Assembly (NCBI GenBank): GCA_963666835.2
Contig: CAXXGO010000003.1
Coordinates: forward strand, 224,001-288,000
Source of the DNA: Phycisphaerae bacterium
GTDB lineage: Bacteria; Planctomycetota; Phycisphaerae; UBA1845
Reading direction: 5' to 3'
Length of the DNA stretch: 64,000 bases
The notes beneath the pieces are model-generated. The model had not been told where the DNA came from and made no database searches. It saw nothing but the letters and a program-made list of their open reading frames with translations. The translations under genes and the position numbers were made by a program. Each line of letters starts with the position of its first letter. The stretch's first letter is position 1. Positions 28,331 through 37,369 of the stretch are shown piece by piece.

Positions 28331-29758
28331 TCAGCGACCAGCGGCGGCGGGGCATCTTTCGCGGATTTGCTCGAGCGTTGGGCTGTCCGGCCTCAACGGT
28401 TGCCACAGGTCGCACACGTGCTGCAGGCGGACCGGATCCAGATCGTGGTCGGTCCGAAGTCGGGCCGCCAGGGCGTTGAGGACCTCGTCCAACATGTCGC
28501 GGTGCGCCTGACTGTCGATGCCCGGAGGAAGATCGCGGGCGACTTCCACGGCGACCTCGGCGGCGTTTATAGGATCTTCTCGGGCGGCGGCGCGAAGAGC
28601 TTCCTGAAGGAGCGGCTGGACGAAAGCGACGCCGCGGGCGGAAGACTTCCAGGTTTCGACCAGGGTAGGCCAGTATCGCCGCTGCTCGGGCCAGGGCGTT
28701 GTCCGGAACTGCCCGCGAAGGTGAGATTGAGCCTTCGCCGCGAAGTCTTCGGCGATCATGGACTCCACTTCGTTGCTTGGTGTCGCGGGGCGGAGGGAGC
28801 CCCGTACGCGGACCAGCAGTTCATCGACGGTCGTTTTGTGAATCTCGTCGATGTTGTTGAAGAGTCGGCCGACCCGTTCACATCCTGCGGGAGTCACGTC
28901 GGGGAACGGGCGCGAGGTTCGTGCCGCCAGCGTGATGTTGTCGCCGCACTCCCAGAGCCGGTCAACGAAACGGACCCAGGCCGATTCCGCGATGAACGGC
29001 TCACTCGCGCCGTGCGGATCGATGTACTCCACCGGTTGACCCACGATGCGGGTCTTCGTGAAGTTGGTGGCATCAAAGAGCAGGTGCAGGTCGTGACACC
29101 GTCCGACGGAGAACTTCAAACCGGCCCCGAACGAGACCTTCGATCGTAACGGACCGGGCAGGCCCAATAGCAGAGTCTCGGCAGATTCGAGCCAGCCGTC
29201 TTCTATGTTGACGATAAGTCGGCGGTGTTCAAGAAGCCGCTGCAGAACTCGGCATCGCACCGGCGAGGCCAGCGCCGGATGTAAGGCTGCCTGCTGTTGT
29301 GGTCCGGCGGTGCCTTGTACAGACAGCTCAAGCTCCGGAAGCACCGCAGGTGGCTTGAGCTGGGGTGAAGCGGCGTCTGCCGCGACCATGGCACGTAAGA
29401 CGTTGAATGCGTTATAGCCGCAAGCGCAGAACTCGGCTTCATGAAAGACGACATTGTGGGTGTAGACCCGGTGTCCACCGCGCCCGGTGTGTTCGGCTCC
29501 GGCTAGGCAGGATAGCGCCACGCACAGGCGGCCGCTGGGCAACGCATAGAACGCCGCTCCCACGAGCAATCGATCAGCGTCCGCTCCGGTCGGCGCCGGC
29601 GCGCACATCCCCTCGTGGGAAGGGGAGTTTCGGGTAATGGACTGCTTCTCGTCCGCGCGGAGCCCGGGGCTGGCCGCGACTATGCGGTATCCTTCGCCCA
29701 TGGGCGTGCGGATGGACGTGAAGATGGCCTGGTCACAGGTTAGCGTGGTGGAGGACAT
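28331..29758 (-). CDS. GTPase-associated protein 1 (GAP1-N2-like) domain protein with helical C-terminus
   Basis: CDQAIFTS..GYRIVAASPG..FYALPSGR..GAEHTGRGG.RVYTHNVV, recognised from memory of the family; GAGGG RBS; directly downstream of the GTPase. Confidence 0.72.
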   Translation of the reverse strand: MSSTTLTCDQAIFTSIRTPMGEGYRIVAASPGLRADEKQSITRNSPSHEGMCAPAPTGADADRLLVGAAFYALPSGRLCVALSCLAGAEHTGRGGHRVYTHNVVFHEAEFCACGYNAFNVLRAMVAADAASPQLKPPAVLPELELSVQGTAGPQQQAALHPALASPVRCRVLQRLLEHRRLIVNIEDGWLESAETLLLGLPGPLRSKVSFGAGLKFSVGRCHDLHLLFDATNFTKTRIVGQPVEYIDPHGASEPFIAESAWVRFVDRLWECGDNITLAARTSRPFPDVTPAGCERVGRLFNNIDEIHKTTVDELLVRVRGSLRPATPSNEVESMIAEDFAAKAQSHLRGQFRTTPWPEQRRYWPTLVETWKSSARGVAFVQPLLQEALRAAAREDPINAAEVAVEVARDLPPGIDSQAHRDMLDEVLNALAARLRTDHDLDPVRLQHVCDLWQPLRPDSPTLEQIRERCPAAAGR

Positions 29759-29786
29759 TGGGGTCCCTCGCGTTTGAGCCCTCGAG

Positions 29787-30677
29787 CTAGAGTTTGCTGA
29801 GCACCCACTCAAACGGTTCCAGAATCCCGCGGGGTGCGACGTGCAGCGGGTGAGGAACCACGTTGTCGTATTCGTCCGTGCCGTATCCCAGACCACCGAC
29901 GACGCTGGTTGGGAAGAACTCGAAATTGGCGAACCGGCTATCGCAGATGTTCCACAGCCGGTTGAGGTTCGTCTCGGCGAACCCGCGCGGGTCGTCGAAA
30001 CAATCCGGCGAATAGTCGGCCTTCGAAAGTACGATGCCGATCGGAGTTTGCAGACGTTTCTCCTGATGATCGGTGAGGACGCCGTCAAGATAGCTCATCA
30101 GCTTGAGGGCGAAGAAGTCCGGTTGCGGCGATCCGGCTCCGGCGAGGGCTCCGTCAACCAGCAGAATCGCGGCCGCGCTCTTCTCGAGAAGAGACCTGAT
30201 AACCTTGAAGGTCCGCGGAGCGGCAACCTCGGCGGCGATGGCTTCCCCGGCCATGTCCGGCATGACCAGGTCGTAAATCCGCGACTTGCGTTCGCGTTTC
30301 GCAATCTGATAGTACGCCCAGTGCCACTGGTCGGCCTCAACGGCCGTTTTGGGCGGAAACTGCCGGCTGGCAAGATAGCTGATCACGGTGTGTTGGAGAT
30401 TGACCGAGTATGCTCCTTTGGGAACGGCGTTGAAGTCCTCGGCGCGCTTAGAGAGCATATCCAGCAGCATGCCCAGGTAGACCGTCTTGCCGACGTTGCT
30501 GTCGCCGATAACGGTGATGATGCAGGGGTCGCGTTCCTGGGCGACGGCCTCCTGGATCAGCGCCATCGGGGCATAGCAGCTCCCACAAACGATGGCGTCG
30601 GCCGGGTTCTGCTCCTCGCAGATCAGACACGGGAGAGTCGTGCTCTCTGGATAGGTCGATGTCGACATTGTAGTCAC
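29787..30677 (-). CDS. TRAFAC-class GTPase (double-GTPase-like) with N-terminal Zn ribbon
   Basis: CLIC..CGSC; G1 GDSNVGKT; G2 PPKT; G3 DMAGE; G4 SKAD; G5-like TSVVG; AAGGAG RBS. Confidence 0.85.
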   Translation of the reverse strand: MTTMSTSTYPESTTLPCLICEEQNPADAIVCGSCYAPMALIQEAVAQERDPCIITVIGDSNVGKTVYLGMLLDMLSKRAEDFNAVPKGAYSVNLQHTVISYLASRQFPPKTAVEADQWHWAYYQIAKRERKSRIYDLVMPDMAGEAIAAEVAAPRTFKVIRSLLEKSAAAILLVDGALAGAGSPQPDFFALKLMSYLDGVLTDHQEKRLQTPIGIVLSKADYSPDCFDDPRGFAETNLNRLWNICDSRFANFEFFPTSVVGGLGYGTDEYDNVVPHPLHVAPRGILEPFEWVLSKL

Positions 30678-30694
30678 GAAGTCACTCCTTGCGA

Positions 30695-31741
30695 TCAGCT
30701 TCCGGTGATCCAGGTCGCGTCGTTGAGATCCATTGCGCAGCGAATTCCCGTGTTGTGGGTGCGGGCCAGGGCTATCTGCCCGGTTCGAAAGTGGGAGGTA
30801 GCCTGCGTCTCGAAATACGTGTCAAACGCGCCGCCGCGAACGGCGTGCATGGGCATCTCGCCGACGATGGTGCGACCCTCGTCGTCGGTAGTGGTGTACT
30901 CGGTGTCGGTCCACTCCCAGACGTTACCAACAAGTTGAAGCACCTGATTCGGTGCCGCCCCCTTCGGGTAACTGTCGACCGGGACGGTGGTGTGTACTCG
31001 CGAGGACCAGACATTGCACCGCCGCTTATCCATGGCGTCACCCCATGGGAAACGACGCATCAGGTCGGCGGAGCTATCGATGTGCCAGGAGGCGGCCATC
31101 TGCCACTCGGCCTCCGTCGGAAGCCGCTGACCGATCCACAGTGCAAAAGCCTGAGCCTCGTACCAACTCACTCCAACCACCGGGTGGTCCGCAAACCGCA
31201 CATCATGGCGTCCGTGCTGCCAGAACCGCGGTCCCGGCTCTCCGGTCTGGTCCTTCAGTTCGATCAGGTGAGGCCAGATCTCCTCCGGCCAGAGTTCGAG
31301 ATTGTCGTAGCCTTCATCGTCGACGAATTGCTGGAATCGGGCGTTGGTCACCACGTGTACGTCAAGCAGAAACGGTTCGACATCCAGGTCCACCTCCGGC
31401 GCGCCGGGGTGGGCGGACAGAGTCTGGGAAATGGAGACACTCCCGGCCGGTACCAGGGCCATCCGTCGTTCCAACTCACTGACGGCCTTTTTTATAGCGG
31501 TTTGGCCTCCCGGATGTTCCTTCAGCTTAGCCTGGTCGTGCAGGACGACGTTATGCCGGCCTTGCTGGAGGAGTCGCTGGACGGGGTCGGCGTCCCACGG
31601 CTGTCGCGGAGCCGGATGGTACGCAGGTGCCGGCGGTGGTGCCGGCGCTGCTTCGCTCTCGACGGTTTCGCGTTTACGTTTCGCGGGTGCTTCAGGTTTG
31701 GTCTTTGTGAACAGCTTCAGGCCCATGCTCTTGGCTCCCAT
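30695..31741 (-). CDS. FGE-sulfatase (SUMF1-like, C-type lectin fold) domain protein, cytoplasmic
   Basis: VTNARF, HPVVGVSWYEA, RLPTEAEW, FPWG, GNVWEW, RGG, GIRC; no signal peptide; no catalytic CxxxxC. Confidence 0.92.
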   Translation of the reverse strand: MGAKSMGLKLFTKTKPEAPAKRKRETVESEAAPAPPPAPAYHPAPRQPWDADPVQRLLQQGRHNVVLHDQAKLKEHPGGQTAIKKAVSELERRMALVPAGSVSISQTLSAHPGAPEVDLDVEPFLLDVHVVTNARFQQFVDDEGYDNLELWPEEIWPHLIELKDQTGEPGPRFWQHGRHDVRFADHPVVGVSWYEAQAFALWIGQRLPTEAEWQMAASWHIDSSADLMRRFPWGDAMDKRRCNVWSSRVHTTVPVDSYPKGAAPNQVLQLVGNVWEWTDTEYTTTDDEGRTIVGEMPMHAVRGGAFDTYFETQATSHFRTGQIALARTHNTGIRCAMDLNDATWITGS

Positions 31742-31767
31742 GGGGATTAAGTGCGACCGTGCGGGGA

Positions 31768-32673
31768 TCAGACTCCTAGGGCTCTCCGTTTGGCATCGCG
31801 GCGGAGTTTACGGAACTGCTCGGCGGCAGCGCCCGCGGCGGGCTTGGGTCTCGGTGCTGCCGGGGTCTCTGGGGGTTCAGGGGTTGATGTTACCGGCTTT
31901 GGAGTCGGCACGGGGTCGACCTGGAGTTCCGGACTCGCCGTGGCGATAGGGGGAGCCGGTTCGGGGGCCATCCGGTCGACCGGAATCTCCCGGACGGCGC
32001 CCAAGCGACTTAGCAACTCCTGCCGCTGTACCGCCACCTCGCGCTGATCGTGCGCGAGCTGCTCCTGAAGGGCGGCGAGAGCCGCCCGGGTCTCACTCAG
32101 CTCGGTAGCGTATGACTCCAGTTGCTCCTCGCGCGCGGCCAAGCTCTGCTCTCGTCGTTCCAGTGCGAGCCGCTGCGGCTCGAGCTCGCGCAACTGCTCC
32201 GCGATTCTCTGCTCTGACAGGCTGACGGTCCGCTCCCGCTCAGTCAGATCGGAGTTCTTGGCAATGTACTCCTGCCGTTCCGCGGCGCAAGCCTCCTGCT
32301 GCTCCGCAAGTTGCTTGCTTCGTGCGTTCAGTTCCTCCAGCTCGGCGAGAATGGCCGGCTTCTCTTCCTCGATTTGCTGGAAGGCCGACTCGACCTCCCG
32401 GCGTCGAGCGGCGAGTTCCTTTTCCTTGGCTGCCAGATCCGCCTGTTGACTCTCCAGTACCGAACGCTGCTCGTCCAGAGCGGCCAGCTCTTCAGATAGC
32501 TCGGTTCGCTCCTGCTCCATCTGCTCGCGCTCGGCCAGCATCGATTGAGCTTCTTGGTGGAGCTGCTGACGGACCGTCTTCAGCGCCGCCAATGCCTCTT
32601 GGGCCAGTTCCGGGATTTCGCCGGAGCCCAACGGACATTCAGGCACCTCGGTTCTTGGTGGCTGTGAGTTCAA
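31768..32673 (-). CDS. Coiled-coil protein (~300 aa) with Pro-rich linker and basic C-terminal helix
   Basis: About 230 aa of E/Q/R/L heptads, then P-rich linker, then AEQFRKLRRDAKRRALGV. Confidence 0.8.
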   Translation of the reverse strand: MNSQPPRTEVPECPLGSGEIPELAQEALAALKTVRQQLHQEAQSMLAEREQMEQERTELSEELAALDEQRSVLESQQADLAAKEKELAARRREVESAFQQIEEEKPAILAELEELNARSKQLAEQQEACAAERQEYIAKNSDLTERERTVSLSEQRIAEQLRELEPQRLALERREQSLAAREEQLESYATELSETRAALAALQEQLAHDQREVAVQRQELLSRLGAVREIPVDRMAPEPAPPIATASPELQVDPVPTPKPVTSTPEPPETPAAPRPKPAAGAAAEQFRKLRRDAKRRALGV

Positions 32674-33103
32674 ACGAGATCCTCGTTTCTGGCGACCGCG
32701 CCGGACCCGCGGGTCGAACCCGTTGTTCAGAAGTTTCCAGAACGGGGCATATCCCCTTGAAGCCTAATCGGCCCGCGAGGTCGCCCAGCTTACCAAACCG
32801 TACGATATGGTGAGCAGGGTGCCTACTTTGGTGCCAGGGGATACGGGACTTTCATCTGGTTACCGCCCGCAACGGTTGCTTTCGGACCTGAGAAACCAGG
32901 ACGCACGAAGACAACTTGTTAAAGGACCTGCCGGACGAAGACGGTGCAAGCTGCGCGCCTTACGCCCGATGAAATGTACACTTGGCATGACCCCCCTGAA
33001 GCGCATCGTCATCGTTCGCTCGTTGGGAGCGTCGGGCGTTTCGAGCAACGGGCCGGGGACCCAACCGGAGCCCTTTCTCCGGAAACCTGATTCTGCGCAC
33101 GCG

Positions 33104-36100
33104 ATGAAAGACGAACCTATGGTGCGAAACAGTTCCGCGTTGGAGGCGTTAGCGGCGGCTGACTCGGCCGTTGAGGCGCTGGAGCAGGCGTTGACCGGCC
33201 AAGAGTCGCGCATAGCGGCCTGGTCGCAGGACTTCCGCGAGCAGTTGACGAAGCAGGCCGAGCTGCGCGAGGCGGATGTCCAGCGGCGGATGAACGAGAT
33301 TGGACAACGCGAATCCGAACTAGTCCGCGAACGGGAAGAGCTGGTGGCGGCCACCGTCAAGGTTGAGTCGCTGATCGAGAAATCGCGGGATGAAGAGATT
33401 GCCTGGCGGAGCCGCGAGGCGGAACTGGCGGCGGCTACGCAAGAGTTAGCGGAACGGGGGGAATTGCTGCAGGCGCGGGAGCGCGAGATTGAAGAACGCG
33501 CGCAGAATGAACGAGATGAGCTTCGTGAACTTGGCGAATCAACGGCGGAAGCGCGGAGGCAACTGGAGTCGGACCAGAACGCCCTTCGCCAAGCACAGGC
33601 TGACGTTGAAGAGTGGCTCGCCGACCTGTCACAACGCCGGCAGCAACTGGCGGAGGCCGAGGATTTGTTGGCTAGCGGCCGAGCGGATCTCGAGTCGCAG
33701 ACTGCTGAGGTGGCCCGTCGGGCCGACGAGTTGGCCAAGTTCAAGCGGCAGCTCCGCAGCTTCGAAGAGGAAAGCAAGAAACGTATCGCGGAGCAGGACG
33801 CCCGCGAGGCTGATCTTCAGAAGCGAGAGCAGGAGCTGACATCCCGGGCGGATGAGCTGGATACTGTCGCGGGGCAGCGCCGGTCCGTCTTGGACAAGCT
33901 GGAGCAGGAGTTGGCCTCGGCGAACGAGGAGATCTCCGCGCAACGTGAGCAAGCATCGCTGGAAACGCAGAAGGTCAGCGAACTGCAGGCCGAGCTCGAA
34001 CAGCGCGAGCAGGAGTTGGAAAGCCGGGCGGCCGAGCTGCGGGCTGTCGAAGCCCGTCACGAGCAAGCCGCAGCGCAGCGGAAGGAAGCGGAACAGAGAC
34101 TCGCCTTAGAGCAAGAGCAGTTGGAGTCCATCCGGAGCGAGCTCGACGAACGCGCCGCCGCAGCGGCTGCCGGCGAGGACGAACTCCAGAAGCGTCTTAC
34201 CCAAGTCACCGCCCGGGAGAGCGAGATCGCTGCCCGGGGCGAACAAGTCAGGCAAGCCGAACAGGAGCTGGAGAATCGCTGCGGAGAATTGCAGCGGCAG
34301 GCGGACGAGTTCGGCGAGCGAATCGCAGAGTATCAGGCATCGTCCGAGCAACTTGCGGCCCGGCAGGCCCAGGCTAGGGAAAACGAAGCGGACGTCGCCA
34401 GGCGCATTGAGGAGCTGGAGAAACGTCGGGCCGCTCTGGAGCAGGACCGCGCCCGTTTCGAGCAGGCCCACTCTGCGGATGCAAAAGACCTGGAAGAAGC
34501 ACGCCGCGCCGTTGCCGAAGAGAGGGAGGGGCTCGCTACGGAGCGGAGTGCCCTGGCGCAACGTGCTGCGGAGTTGGACGATCTGAGGGACGCCCTGGAT
34601 CGCGATTCGCAGGAGCTGAAGGACTCCCGGGCCGCTGTTGAAGGGGAGTGCGACGCTGAGCGCCGGTCCGTCCTGGCGGAAAGGGAGCGGCTTGCCGAGG
34701 AGCAGGCTGCGCTAGAACAGCAGGCGACACAACTTGAACGTCGGCGTGCCGAACTGGCGGAAGAAGCCGAAGCCGCCCGAGCGGCCGGGGAAGCTGAACT
34801 TGGCCGGGAACGCGGGGGGCTGGCCGAAGAACGCCGGCGCATTCAAGTCGACCGGGATGCGGCCAAGGAACGGGAAGCAGCGTTGGTCGCGCTGCAGCAG
34901 GAGCTTGGTGAGCGAGAGGCTCGGATCGAGTCCGCTCGCAAAGACGGCGCTGCCGAATTAGCCCAGGCGCGCGAGGCGTTTGCCGAGGAGCAGCAGGCTC
35001 TGGCCGCCGAGAAGACTGCGTTTGCGGAAAGGTCCGCCGAGCTGGATGAACGGCAGGCCGACCTGGAGAGGAGAATACAGGAGGAGGAGAAGAGCCGGGC
35101 AGCGCACGAGCAAGAGATTGGATTGCTCCGCCAGGCGCTGTCCCAGGAACAGGAACAACTGGAGTTGGCGCGCGAGAAGTTCCAACAGCGCGATGCGGAG
35201 TCGCAGCGTATTCGGACGGCTCTGGCTGAAGAACGCGGCCAAGTAGACTCTGCCCGCGAAGCTCTCGAAGGAAAGAGCGCGGGTATCAAGGAGCAGCAAG
35301 CGCAGCTCGAAGCCGACCGGGCGGAGTTCGAGAAGGCTATTGCCCAGGATAGGGCGGCTATTCAGCAGGAGCAAGAGACTCTAGCTGCTGACCGTCAACA
35401 GTCTGACACTGAGCGAACGGTTCTGGAAAGACGGGCGCGCGAGCTGGATGAGTTCGAGGTCGAACTGGATCGCCGTAACGAGGAGCTGATCGGCGGTCAC
35501 AAGGCCGGATCCGCCGAGCTGCAGGAGCGGCAGCGGGAGTTGGCGGCGGCGAAGAAAGCTCTCTCGGCAGAGCGAACGCAGCTCGAAAAGCGGTCCGGGG
35601 AGTTGGCCGCAGTGCGGTTAGAACTCAAGGCTCGGACCCAGGAGATCGAGGCGAAGAACGCCGAATACGCCGCCCAGCTTGAGCAGGGACAGCGGGAACT
35701 GGCCGACGCCCGTGCCGAGCTGGACACGGAGCGCACGGCGCTAGCCAAACGAACCGCGGAACTGGACGAGCTTCGCGCCGAGCTTACCGAGCAGAAGCAG
35801 GAAGTCGAGAATGCCGCCCGCTCGGCGGAGTCCGCCGTCGAGGCAAAGCACCTGGAGCTTGCCGAACATCGGTCCCAACTCGAGGCCGAACAGGCCGAGC
35901 TGAACAAGCGAGCTGCGGATGTGGAACAGCAGCACGAGGAGCTGAAGCGGCAGGCGGCCGAAATCGTGGAGACGCGCACGGTCTCCGCCACCGAGCTGGA
36001 CGCCGAACGCGCCTCTATCAAAGAACGAGAGGCGGCCGTCCAAGCCGAGCTCGAGTCGTTGAAGAAGCAAAGCGTCGAGTTGGAGTCATCTCGCGAAGAG

Positions 36101-37369
36101 CTAAACCGGCGGCTCGCGGAAGTGGAAGAGAGTGCGGCGTCCAAGGACTCTCAACTGAAGCAGGCAAGAGAAGCGGTGGCTGCGGCCCGCCAAGACTGCG
36201 AGAACCGTGAGGCTGCGCTCGCTCAACGTACTGCGGAGCTTGACGGTCTGCGGGAAGATCTCGAGCGAAAAGCGGAAGAAGCCGCACAGACTCAGACTGC
36301 GGTACACGCCGAGATGGAGGAGCTGCGCCGGGCCGTGGAAAACGACCGCAAGCGGCTTGATGCGGAACGAGCGGAACTACAGGACGGACGGGCTGCCCTG
36401 GAAAGCGCTCGGGCTCAGATCGACGCGCTTCGACAGGCAGAGAGTGACAGCGTAGCGTCAGCCAACGGTCGGATCCGTCAGATGGAAGGCGAAATCGAGG
36501 CCCTCGGGGAGGAACTCAAGACCGCCAAAGCTCACACCGTTGAGTTGGAACAGGCTTGGGAGGCGGCGGAACAGGCTCAAGAGACGGGTGGTGAGGAGCT
36601 AAGTCAGGCTCGTGCCGAGTGCGTGGCTCTTCGCGAACAGATTGAGCAGGAGCAAAGCCAAGCCGCCGATTTTCTGGCAGCGATCGAAGAGCGTGAGCAG
36701 AGAATCGCGCATCTTGAAGAGGAAGCGATTCAGAAGGAACAGGAGCAAGCGGATCGGGGGGATGAAAACGCGGGCACCCCGATCGACGAGCGCAAGAGCC
36801 GCTTGGCAAGCCATGCGGCCATTGGGGCGTTCTGGCAGAGTCTCGAAGCGACCGCGGAAGAACCGGCGCCAAGCGAGCCAACCGCCCGGATCGACTCCTC
36901 GGCGATGATGGAACTTGCGGTTCTCGAAGAGTCGGATGATAGCGGTCAGCCTGTTGACGAGGGTGAACGGGGAGAGGCCGGCGAGGATTCAATTGACGTC
37001 AGCCAAGCAGCGGCAATGAAGGAAGCCTTAGCAGCGGCGAAGGCGGAGTTGGAGGCGGCCAATGAAGAGCCGGCGCCGGGGATGTCGGTGGAAGAGGTCC
37101 AGAACTTGCCCGAACACGAGACCGCGTCGGAACCTCTGAAGTTCACCGCCGACCTGGCCGGCAACGTTCCGGAAGAACCGGTAACACCGCCCGCTCCCGC
37201 TGCGGTCGAGGAAGAACCCGAGCTAACGCCCGAAGTCGCCATGAAACTGAAGCTGCTCAAGCGACTGCAACCGGGGAAGTCTACGAAGGAACTGCTGGCG
37301 CAGATCGAGGCCGAAAAACCGGCGCAGGCCGCCGCGAAGGGCAAGAAACGCTGGTTCGGCCGCAAGTGA
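33104..37369 (+). CDS. Giant coiled-coil protein (~1420 aa) with 53-aa repeats, acidic disordered region and KKRWFGRK tail
   Basis: Long uninterrupted ORF of heptad composition; no ATPase motifs or TM segment; start probably 33104 or 33119. Confidence 0.88.
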   Translation: MKDEPMVRNSSALEALAAADSAVEALEQALTGQESRIAAWSQDFREQLTKQAELREADVQRRMNEIGQRESELVREREELVAATVKVESLIEKSRDEEIAWRSREAELAAATQELAERGELLQAREREIEERAQNERDELRELGESTAEARRQLESDQNALRQAQADVEEWLADLSQRRQQLAEAEDLLASGRADLESQTAEVARRADELAKFKRQLRSFEEESKKRIAEQDAREADLQKREQELTSRADELDTVAGQRRSVLDKLEQELASANEEISAQREQASLETQKVSELQAELEQREQELESRAAELRAVEARHEQAAAQRKEAEQRLALEQEQLESIRSELDERAAAAAAGEDELQKRLTQVTARESEIAARGEQVRQAEQELENRCGELQRQADEFGERIAEYQASSEQLAARQAQARENEADVARRIEELEKRRAALEQDRARFEQAHSADAKDLEEARRAVAEEREGLATERSALAQRAAELDDLRDALDRDSQELKDSRAAVEGECDAERRSVLAERERLAEEQAALEQQATQLERRRAELAEEAEAARAAGEAELGRERGGLAEERRRIQVDRDAAKEREAALVALQQELGEREARIESARKDGAAELAQAREAFAEEQQALAAEKTAFAERSAELDERQADLERRIQEEEKSRAAHEQEIGLLRQALSQEQEQLELAREKFQQRDAESQRIRTALAEERGQVDSAREALEGKSAGIKEQQAQLEADRAEFEKAIAQDRAAIQQEQETLAADRQQSDTERTVLERRARELDEFEVELDRRNEELIGGHKAGSAELQERQRELAAAKKALSAERTQLEKRSGELAAVRLELKARTQEIEAKNAEYAAQLEQGQRELADARAELDTERTALAKRTAELDELRAELTEQKQEVENAARSAESAVEAKHLELAEHRSQLEAEQAELNKRAADVEQQHEELKRQAAEIVETRTVSATELDAERASIKEREAAVQAELESLKKQSVELESSREELNRRLAEVEESAASKDSQLKQAREAVAAARQDCENREAALAQRTAELDGLREDLERKAEEAAQTQTAVHAEMEELRRAVENDRKRLDAERAELQDGRAALESARAQIDALRQAESDSVASANGRIRQMEGEIEALGEELKTAKAHTVELEQAWEAAEQAQETGGEELSQARAECVALREQIEQEQSQAADFLAAIEEREQRIAHLEEEAIQKEQEQADRGDENAGTPIDERKSRLASHAAIGAFWQSLEATAEEPAPSEPTARIDSSAMMELAVLEESDDSGQPVDEGERGEAGEDSIDVSQAAAMKEALAAAKAELEAANEEPAPGMSVEEVQNLPEHETASEPLKFTADLAGNVPEEPVTPPAPAAVEEEPELTPEVAMKLKLLKRLQPGKSTKELLAQIEAEKPAQAAAKGKKRWFGRK

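Follow-up and report, generated by a model that had tools for sequence, protein, structure and literature searches.

Introduction

Coiled-coil rods that depart from the heptad pattern at regular intervals are already known (Scy and FilP, the skip residues of myosin, the stutters of intermediate filament proteins), and such a periodicity is on its own of modest interest. The repeat of Scy and FilP spans 51 residues. These two proteins of Streptomyces, which Walshaw et al. reportedly described in 2010, are coiled-coil cytoskeletal proteins with non-heptad repeats. The rods of myosin II and paramyosin and tropomyosin are long two-stranded coiled coils in which regularly spaced irregularities or quasi-repeats are tied to assembly or to the spacing of partners, and myosin rods carry skip residues. 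Here we analyse a giant coiled-coil protein with a 53-residue repeat, encoded in a stretch of 64,000 nt from a Phycisphaerae bacterium (assembly GCA_963666835.2, contig CAXXGO010000003.1, positions 224,001 to 288,000 of the forward strand), hereafter the window. Its open reading frame (ORF) lies at 32807..37369 on the plus strand and has 1520 codons counted from the first ATG, from which residues are numbered below; all nucleotide positions are those of the window.

Going by the passages of PMC9858780 on Scy and FilP, the giant protein resembles them in being a very long bacterial rod (Scy exceeds 1000 residues) grown by internal duplication, in departing regularly from heptads and in having small residues in its hendecad cores. 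Unlike them, it is not hendecad-dominated: six of its seven sub-repeats are heptads and the periodicity is 3.533–3.535. No DivIVA-like head was detected in it with Pfam at E ≤ 0.01, and phylum, tail and gene neighbourhood also differ. With the intermediate-filament-like rods (lamin, vimentin and crescentin; PMC3087291 among others) it shares a head–rod–tail layout and a four-residue stutter that interrupts the heptads; those rods have one stutter at a fixed site, whereas here every one of some 13 tandem units has its own. Compared with myosin II, paramyosin and tropomyosin, it showed no significant charge-stagger signal and has no known partner filament, and its periodicity is not family-wide. 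Our literature search found no description of a 53-residue coiled-coil repeat or of this Phycisphaerae protein family.

Results

Residues 512–1225 are shown here to be a tandem array of a 53-residue alpha-helical module with 15 helical turns per unit, that is, a periodicity of 3.533. An earlier note on this DNA had proposed a 53-residue period from a manual alignment, and autocorrelation over these residues (BLOSUM62, 200 lags, 300 shuffles) confirms that it is real. Lag 53 reaches z = 14.6 (25.7% identity), followed by its multiples at lag 106 (z = 11.1) and lag 159 (z = 7.5); the 95th percentile of the shuffle maximum per run over 200 lags is 3.6. Autocorrelation is negative at lags 52 and 54, and side peaks appear at 39, 46, 60 and 67, which are 53 plus or minus 7 or 14. 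Shuffled-heptad controls, which the note had named as a way to refute the period, leave it standing, with a best-lag mean of 0.023 and a maximum of 0.179 in 500 heptad-block shuffles against 0.950 observed.

The mean pairwise identity of the units is 26.9%, compared with 17.3 ± 0.5% when the core pattern is kept and residues are permuted (z = 17.4; 0/1000) and 18.9% when the composition of each heptad position is kept (z = 14.9; 0/1000). Because none of 1000 permutations reaches the observed identity under either control, the units are homologous and the signal goes beyond a periodic hydrophobic pattern. Across the non-core columns, identity is 24.3% against a null of 14.0% (z = 17.4).

The array occupies 34340..36481 on the plus strand (714 aa) and consists of twelve 53-aa units, one 50-aa unit and one 28-aa piece. 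The order of these pieces had been read correctly before and is recovered by the local best lag, which is 53, then 50 near residue 608, 53 again, 81 (53 + 28) at residues 712–738 and 53 up to about residue 1115. The count had not: the earlier tally of eleven 53-aa units plus 50 and 28 sums to 661 aa rather than the 714 aa of the stretch. The end of the array, placed at 36480, is corrected to nt 36481. Scored in bits by leave-one-out profiles against 348 control windows from the N-terminal rod, nine of the twelve 53-aa units lie above all controls (those starting at residues 565, 721, 802, 855, 908, 961, 1014, 1067 and 1120). The other three, at 512, 668 and 1173, fall below control maxima of about 15–16 bits and have kept the hydrophobic register alone.

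From its N-terminal end, the array begins with one of these marginal units (residues 512–564, 34340..34498; 7.9 bits), followed by a strong unit (565–617, 34499..34657; 44.6 bits, 0/348 controls as high), the 50-aa unit, which is three residues short (618–667, 34658..34807; local lag 50, 18.5 bits against a control maximum of 15.1), a second marginal unit (668–720, 34808..34966; 11.9 bits, 49/348 controls as high) and another strong one (721–773, 34967..35125; 42.0 bits). The 28-aa partial unit of four heptads comes next (774–801, 35126..35209), is marked by the local lag of 81, weakly matches profile columns 2–25 and shifts the 53-phase. Seven unbroken solid units, from the one at 802 to the one at 1120, then run through 35210..36322 with 21.6–43.8 bits and a local lag of 53 or 106 throughout. 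The last unit is again marginal (1173–1225, 36323..36481; 9.1 bits, register kept). As 50 + 28 is not a multiple of 53, the array loses its global phase.

Within the unit, Leu, Ile, Val or Phe occupies columns 5, 12, 19, 26, 33 and 40 in 9–12 of 12 units; the preference is weak at column 47 and strong again at column 51, giving core spacings of 7 five times, then 11, then 7 into the following unit. The hydrophobic Fourier spectrum has a sharp peak at 3.535 (53/15 = 3.533; power 10.2) with harmonics at 2.305 (53/23) and 6.61 (about 53/8). The core columns and the peak together confirm the proposed make-up of the unit, six heptads plus one hendecad. Each heptad has one strongly conserved Leu, Ile or Val, and the seam is leucine-zipper-like and rather polar. 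The hendecad covers columns 40–50, and its inner positions (columns 43, 44 and 47) are mostly Ala, Ser, Thr or Gly, which fits the statement in a passage of PMC9858780 that hendecad cores of dimers require small side chains. The same source gives 3.63 residues per turn.

The composition is 20% Ala, 19% Glu and 13% Arg, and the array has 20 Gly in its 714 residues. Pairs of opposite charge are in excess at i,i+5 (z = 3.8), i,i+3 (z = 3.0) and i,i+4 (z = 2.3), and a charge-stagger analysis found no preferred stagger (p ~0.13 parallel, ~0.10 antiparallel). With a helix rise of 0.1485 nm per residue, one unit comes to about 7.9 nm by arithmetic. The regular stutter would relax the left-handed supercoil, with a pitch that, calculated from 3.63 residues per turn, goes from about 14.5 to about 19.7 nm (roughly 1.36-fold the pitch of a coil made of heptads alone), and would loosen the packing at one point about every 7.9 nm.

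A single-sequence AlphaFold2 (AF2) model of residues 802–1119 has helices at model positions 2–95 and 101–317 with a mean predicted local distance difference test score (pLDDT) of 88; its one break is at a Gly-Gly site at residues 897–901 and none falls at a unit boundary. This Gly-Gly-His-Lys site (35495–35509) is the sole predicted helix break in six units and may be a hinge. A two-copy complex prediction for residues 855–1066, run without controls, scored 0.02 against a mark of 0.32 and speaks neither for nor against dimerization.

At the DNA level the copies are old. Tandem Repeats Finder (TRF) reports no 159-nt repeat in the window array. Between units aligned in register, the first two codon positions show 50% identity, compared with 39–44% in heptad-shifted controls, and the third shows 31.8%, compared with 30–31% in the shifted controls. 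Among 940 pairs of identical residues, the same codon is used in 353 (337 expected). Third-position identity is at background, synonymous sites are saturated and the duplications are old. The unit length has thus been kept while the sequences diverged, as had been suggested from the alignment.

The array lies within a protein with a head–rod–tail layout. Translation probably starts at the ATG at 33104 (M100) or 33119 (M105), giving about 1420 aa, because homologues have their start Met 13–18 residues ahead of a conserved head motif that sits at residue 118 here; ORF codons 1–99 (32807–33103) are probably untranslated. The head motif spans residues ~113–140 (33143..33226) and is matched by a regular expression in 15 of 35 family sequences, with a similar motif visible by eye in others. 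No Pro occurs in residues 111–1290, a helical rod of about 1180 residues and about 175 nm, which bears out the previous estimate of about 1200 residues and 180 nm. The N-terminal rod (residues 111–511, 33140–34339) has other, weaker internal periods, namely lag 42 (z = 7.0) at residues ~400–480, lag 28 at ~231–270 and lag 123, so that segmental duplications seem to have been pieced together along the entire rod. TRF also lists a 13-nt unit repeated 2.2 times within the gene (34270–34297, score 42), which is probably trivial.

Behind the rod, family alignments reveal a conserved aromatic helix motif (residues 1336–1343, 36812..36835), modelled as a helix by AF2, and a helix-turn-helix-like tail module (residues ~1475–1510, 37229..37336). 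In the AF2 model of the C-terminal 235 aa the module corresponds to helices 190–202 and 208–225 with pLDDT >90, in a model whose overall predicted template modelling score (pTM) is just 0.25. The protein ends in a basic-aromatic tail of ten residues, KGKKRWFGRK (37337..37366), and a Lys/Arg run followed by Trp-Phe is kept at the extreme C-terminus of family members. The whole protein matched no Pfam family at E ≤ 0.01, and 16 C-terminal regions searched at E ≤ 5 returned scattered coiled-coil noise only. Foldseek against the PDB with the C-terminal model (pTM 0.25) gave no match at E ≤ 0.001, and the best ESM Atlas score for the C-terminal 235 aa, 0.82, was under the lead threshold. Protein homologue searches with the whole protein and with residues 1300–1520 were swamped by common coiled-coil words and gave no hit at E ≤ 0.001 in 8000 candidates each.

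Relatives were found by searching 41 genomes of the same family and order. The whole protein matched in 23, with the C-terminus as the conserved part, and a profile of the tail places the gene in 33 of the 41. A tail-region profile retrieved 288 cluster representatives at E ≤ 0.001 among 1.84 billion, mostly fragments. Family members are Phycisphaerae (phylum Planctomycetota), with ORFs of 813–1616 aa from stop to stop. Their common plan is the head motif, a variable rod, an acidic and Pro-rich linker with two short conserved helices, the helix-turn-helix-like module and the Lys/Arg-Trp-Phe tail. The loci L032, L033 and L038 yielded no ORF carrying the tail motif and are omitted from the family counts. 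Membership of L031 (G004:C1) is doubtful, as the copy in that genome (G004) lies on another contig according to the tail profile.

Among lags of at least 30, four of the 51 family rods peak at 53, namely those of the window, of L041, of L029 and of the partial L056, and the 106 harmonic is seen in the window and L041 only. The other rods have plain heptad multiples or periods of their own. Arrays of 56 aa (L037, G040:C78; z ~25), 120 aa (L024, G019:C13; z ~14) and 113 aa (L043; z ~13) were observed. The 53-aa array is a lineage-specific way of lengthening the rod, and other genera use other segments. With the aromatic helix motif as rod-end marker, the head-to-tail distance ranges from 629 to 1402 aa among the 14 sequences that yielded both motifs. 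Closer orthologue pairs elsewhere in the family differ by a single rod indel each, 85 aa in a pair at 63% identity and 21 aa in a pair at 83%, so a scarcity of small indels is general to these rods.

The sister orthologue is L041 (CP070744.1, L041:2214-6650, 1479 aa), which groups with the window protein at a Shimodaira–Hasegawa-like approximate likelihood ratio test (SH-aLRT) value of 94 in a quick tree. Its autocorrelation is strong (z53 = 16.6, z106 = 15.8), the window unit profile matches it eight times at 53 or 106 spacing, and its array at residues ~411–1152 alternates A and B units in a 106-aa super-repeat. The L041 array also has segments duplicated at lag 67 and at lag 92, together 159, the length of three units. 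Compared unit by unit with the window, the best matches are not positional, and the global rod alignment, at about 30% identity, has unreliable gaps. Scans of metagenome contigs for closer relatives found none, and the relatives of the L041 genome are the same set as those of the window.

A conserved, divergent operon on the opposite strand starts some 130–430 bp upstream of the giant gene and spans 28331–32673. Nearest to the giant gene is a small coiled-coil protein of about 300 aa (31768..32673, minus strand) with a strongly conserved basic C-terminal tail that is near-identical in all 14 loci compared. Its last ~17 residues (31768–31830) are basic, of Phe-Arg-Lys-Leu-Arg-Arg type, nearly invariant in the 14 loci and loosely similar to a Lys-Leu-Arg-x-Leu-Arg-Arg stretch in the tail of the giant protein; from this resemblance the two tails may share a docking motif. 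Further along the minus strand are an FGE-sulfatase (FGS) domain protein (30695..31741; PF03781, E = 4e-41), also present in homologous loci, a DO-GTPase family protein (29787..30677; PF19975 and PF19993, E ~2e-11) and a GAP1-N2 protein (28331..30088; PF20013, E = 8e-16), the true start of which is probably further downstream, given that the ORF as listed runs into the GTPase gene. The genome has one copy of GAP1-N2. Of 23 genomes with both the tail motif and GAP1-N2, 14 have the two within 8 kb of each other on a single contig (13 of 17 in the family), and most exceptions are fragmented assemblies. A single copy with synteny across the whole family looks closer to a housekeeping module than to a mobile defence island.

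GTPase-centric systems with GAP1-N2 were described by Kaur et al. 2020 (PMC7159879), whose passages on them mention planctomycete examples with FGS effectors, a variable repeat component and effectors that likely form multimeric assemblies. The operon is like these systems in combining a DO-GTPase, GAP1-N2 and an FGS domain protein. It is unlike them, as far as those passages describe them, in that the usual FNIII-repeat component is not seen: no fn3 domain was found in the 16 ORFs scanned at 24–47 kb, nor in the homologous loci scanned. The passages on GAP1-N2 systems do not mention the two coiled-coil proteins, and the source-data tables of that paper may list such neighbourhoods.

Discussion

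The best explanation overall, to which we give a probability of about 60%, is that the giant protein carries a coiled-coil tandem array of ancient duplications, kept in register by ordinary constraints, within a tether or scaffold rod. The array would go back to ancient tandem duplications, of segments 53 and 106 aa long, that predate the divergence from L041. Its unit length would be constant mainly because duplication adds whole units, and a coiled coil would tolerate only indels compatible with its register; the exceptions observed, −3, +28, +14 and −14, are all of that kind. As whole-unit duplication and intolerance of small indels suffice to explain the constant length, a selected 8-nm spacing is not required. 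The protein would then be a head–rod–tail tether or scaffold, about 175 nm long, that binds specifically through its conserved ends and probably works with the adjacent small coiled-coil, FGS, DO-GTPase and GAP1-N2 genes.

The earlier note had instead seen in the constant unit length a sign of selection on axial spacing, as in a ruler, a filament stagger or a periodic binding site. On this reading the 7.9-nm unit would be kept for its spacing, much as tropomyosin presents regular docking sites to actin. Unit length has indeed outlasted synonymous saturation, and the non-core columns are conserved, specific Arg, Glu and Ala columns being prominent. L041 adds observations that pull away from ordinary constraints as the full account: its odd pieces of 14 and 39 aa total 53, so the global register is kept; its A units are 55–68% identical in protein against 38–51% at third codon positions, which indicates purifying selection on old copies beyond coiled-coil need; and its head-to-tail distance of 1231 aa is within 13 aa of the 1218 aa in the window although the rods are only about 30% identical. 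Together these are a hint that register or length may be under selection in this clade. Three further points weigh on the preferred account. Only one core position per heptad is clearly hydrophobic, Arg, Glu, Ala or Ser mostly filling the other, which makes any oligomer state or orientation tentative; the AF2 rod model is of a monomer folded without an alignment; and the functional tie between giant protein and operon is drawn from conserved gene order. Selected spacing nevertheless fares poorly: 47 of the 51 rods have another top lag, rod length varies more than twofold, the window array has a 25-aa phase break, no significant charge-stagger optimum was found, 3 of 12 units have decayed to generic coiled coil and small indels are scarce in family rods generally. 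Selection on an 8-nm spacing is possible but unproven, and we consider it unlikely.

Other readings of the array do worse against duplication under ordinary constraints. A lone Glu/Arg-rich helix of the ER/K type, a single alpha-helix acting as a spacer whose periodicity is a duplication relic, would suit the composition, the mostly charged second core position and the opposite charges at i,i+3 and i,i+4, but it sits badly with a hydrophobic seam at six columns spaced by 7 in 9–12 of 12 units, with so sharp a Fourier peak and with i,i+5 enrichment exceeding that at i,i+4, and is very unlikely. Spectrin-like helical bundles, with the 106-aa super-period as the repeat and loops at Gly/Ser-rich unit ends, could draw on the stretches where lag 106 tops lag 53 (for example 829–855 and 972–998) and on the clustering of Gly, Ser and Thr in columns 42–49. 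They are disfavoured because the AF2 helix is continuous across unit boundaries, running unbroken for 217 residues over four of them; the array also has no prolines and few glycines, and no Pfam match at E ≤ 0.01, which leaves bundles hardly credible. A recent DNA tandem repeat or assembly artefact is refuted by the lack of a 159-nt array in TRF, by third-position identity at background and by the same unit in an independent genome.

The array is a clean natural example of one stutter per 53 residues, maintained over some 700 residues and open to comparison with a sister protein; it could serve to study how supercoil pitch is tuned by stutters and how duplication lengthens rods. A bolder proposal makes the giant rod, together with the small coiled-coil protein, the structural part of a DO-GTPase/GAP1-N2/FGS machine specific to Phycisphaerae, replacing the variable FNIII-repeat or tubulin components of other GAP1-N2 systems, with the 53-residue module as a 7.9-nm docking or stagger unit in the clade of the window. 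We regard this as a long shot. If it were true, partners or neighbouring rods would assemble on the module, and bacteria would gain a new kind of cytoskeleton or scaffold, in a phylum not known to have FtsZ. The larger point is the protein family itself, which is conserved in Phycisphaerae, has a head–rod–tail layout without a Pfam domain, is always encoded next to its paired small coiled-coil gene and usually adjoins the single-copy DO-GTPase/GAP1-N2/FGS operon. If its rods are the structural part of a GTPase system, the predicted 'conflict systems' would gain a testable cell-biological function.

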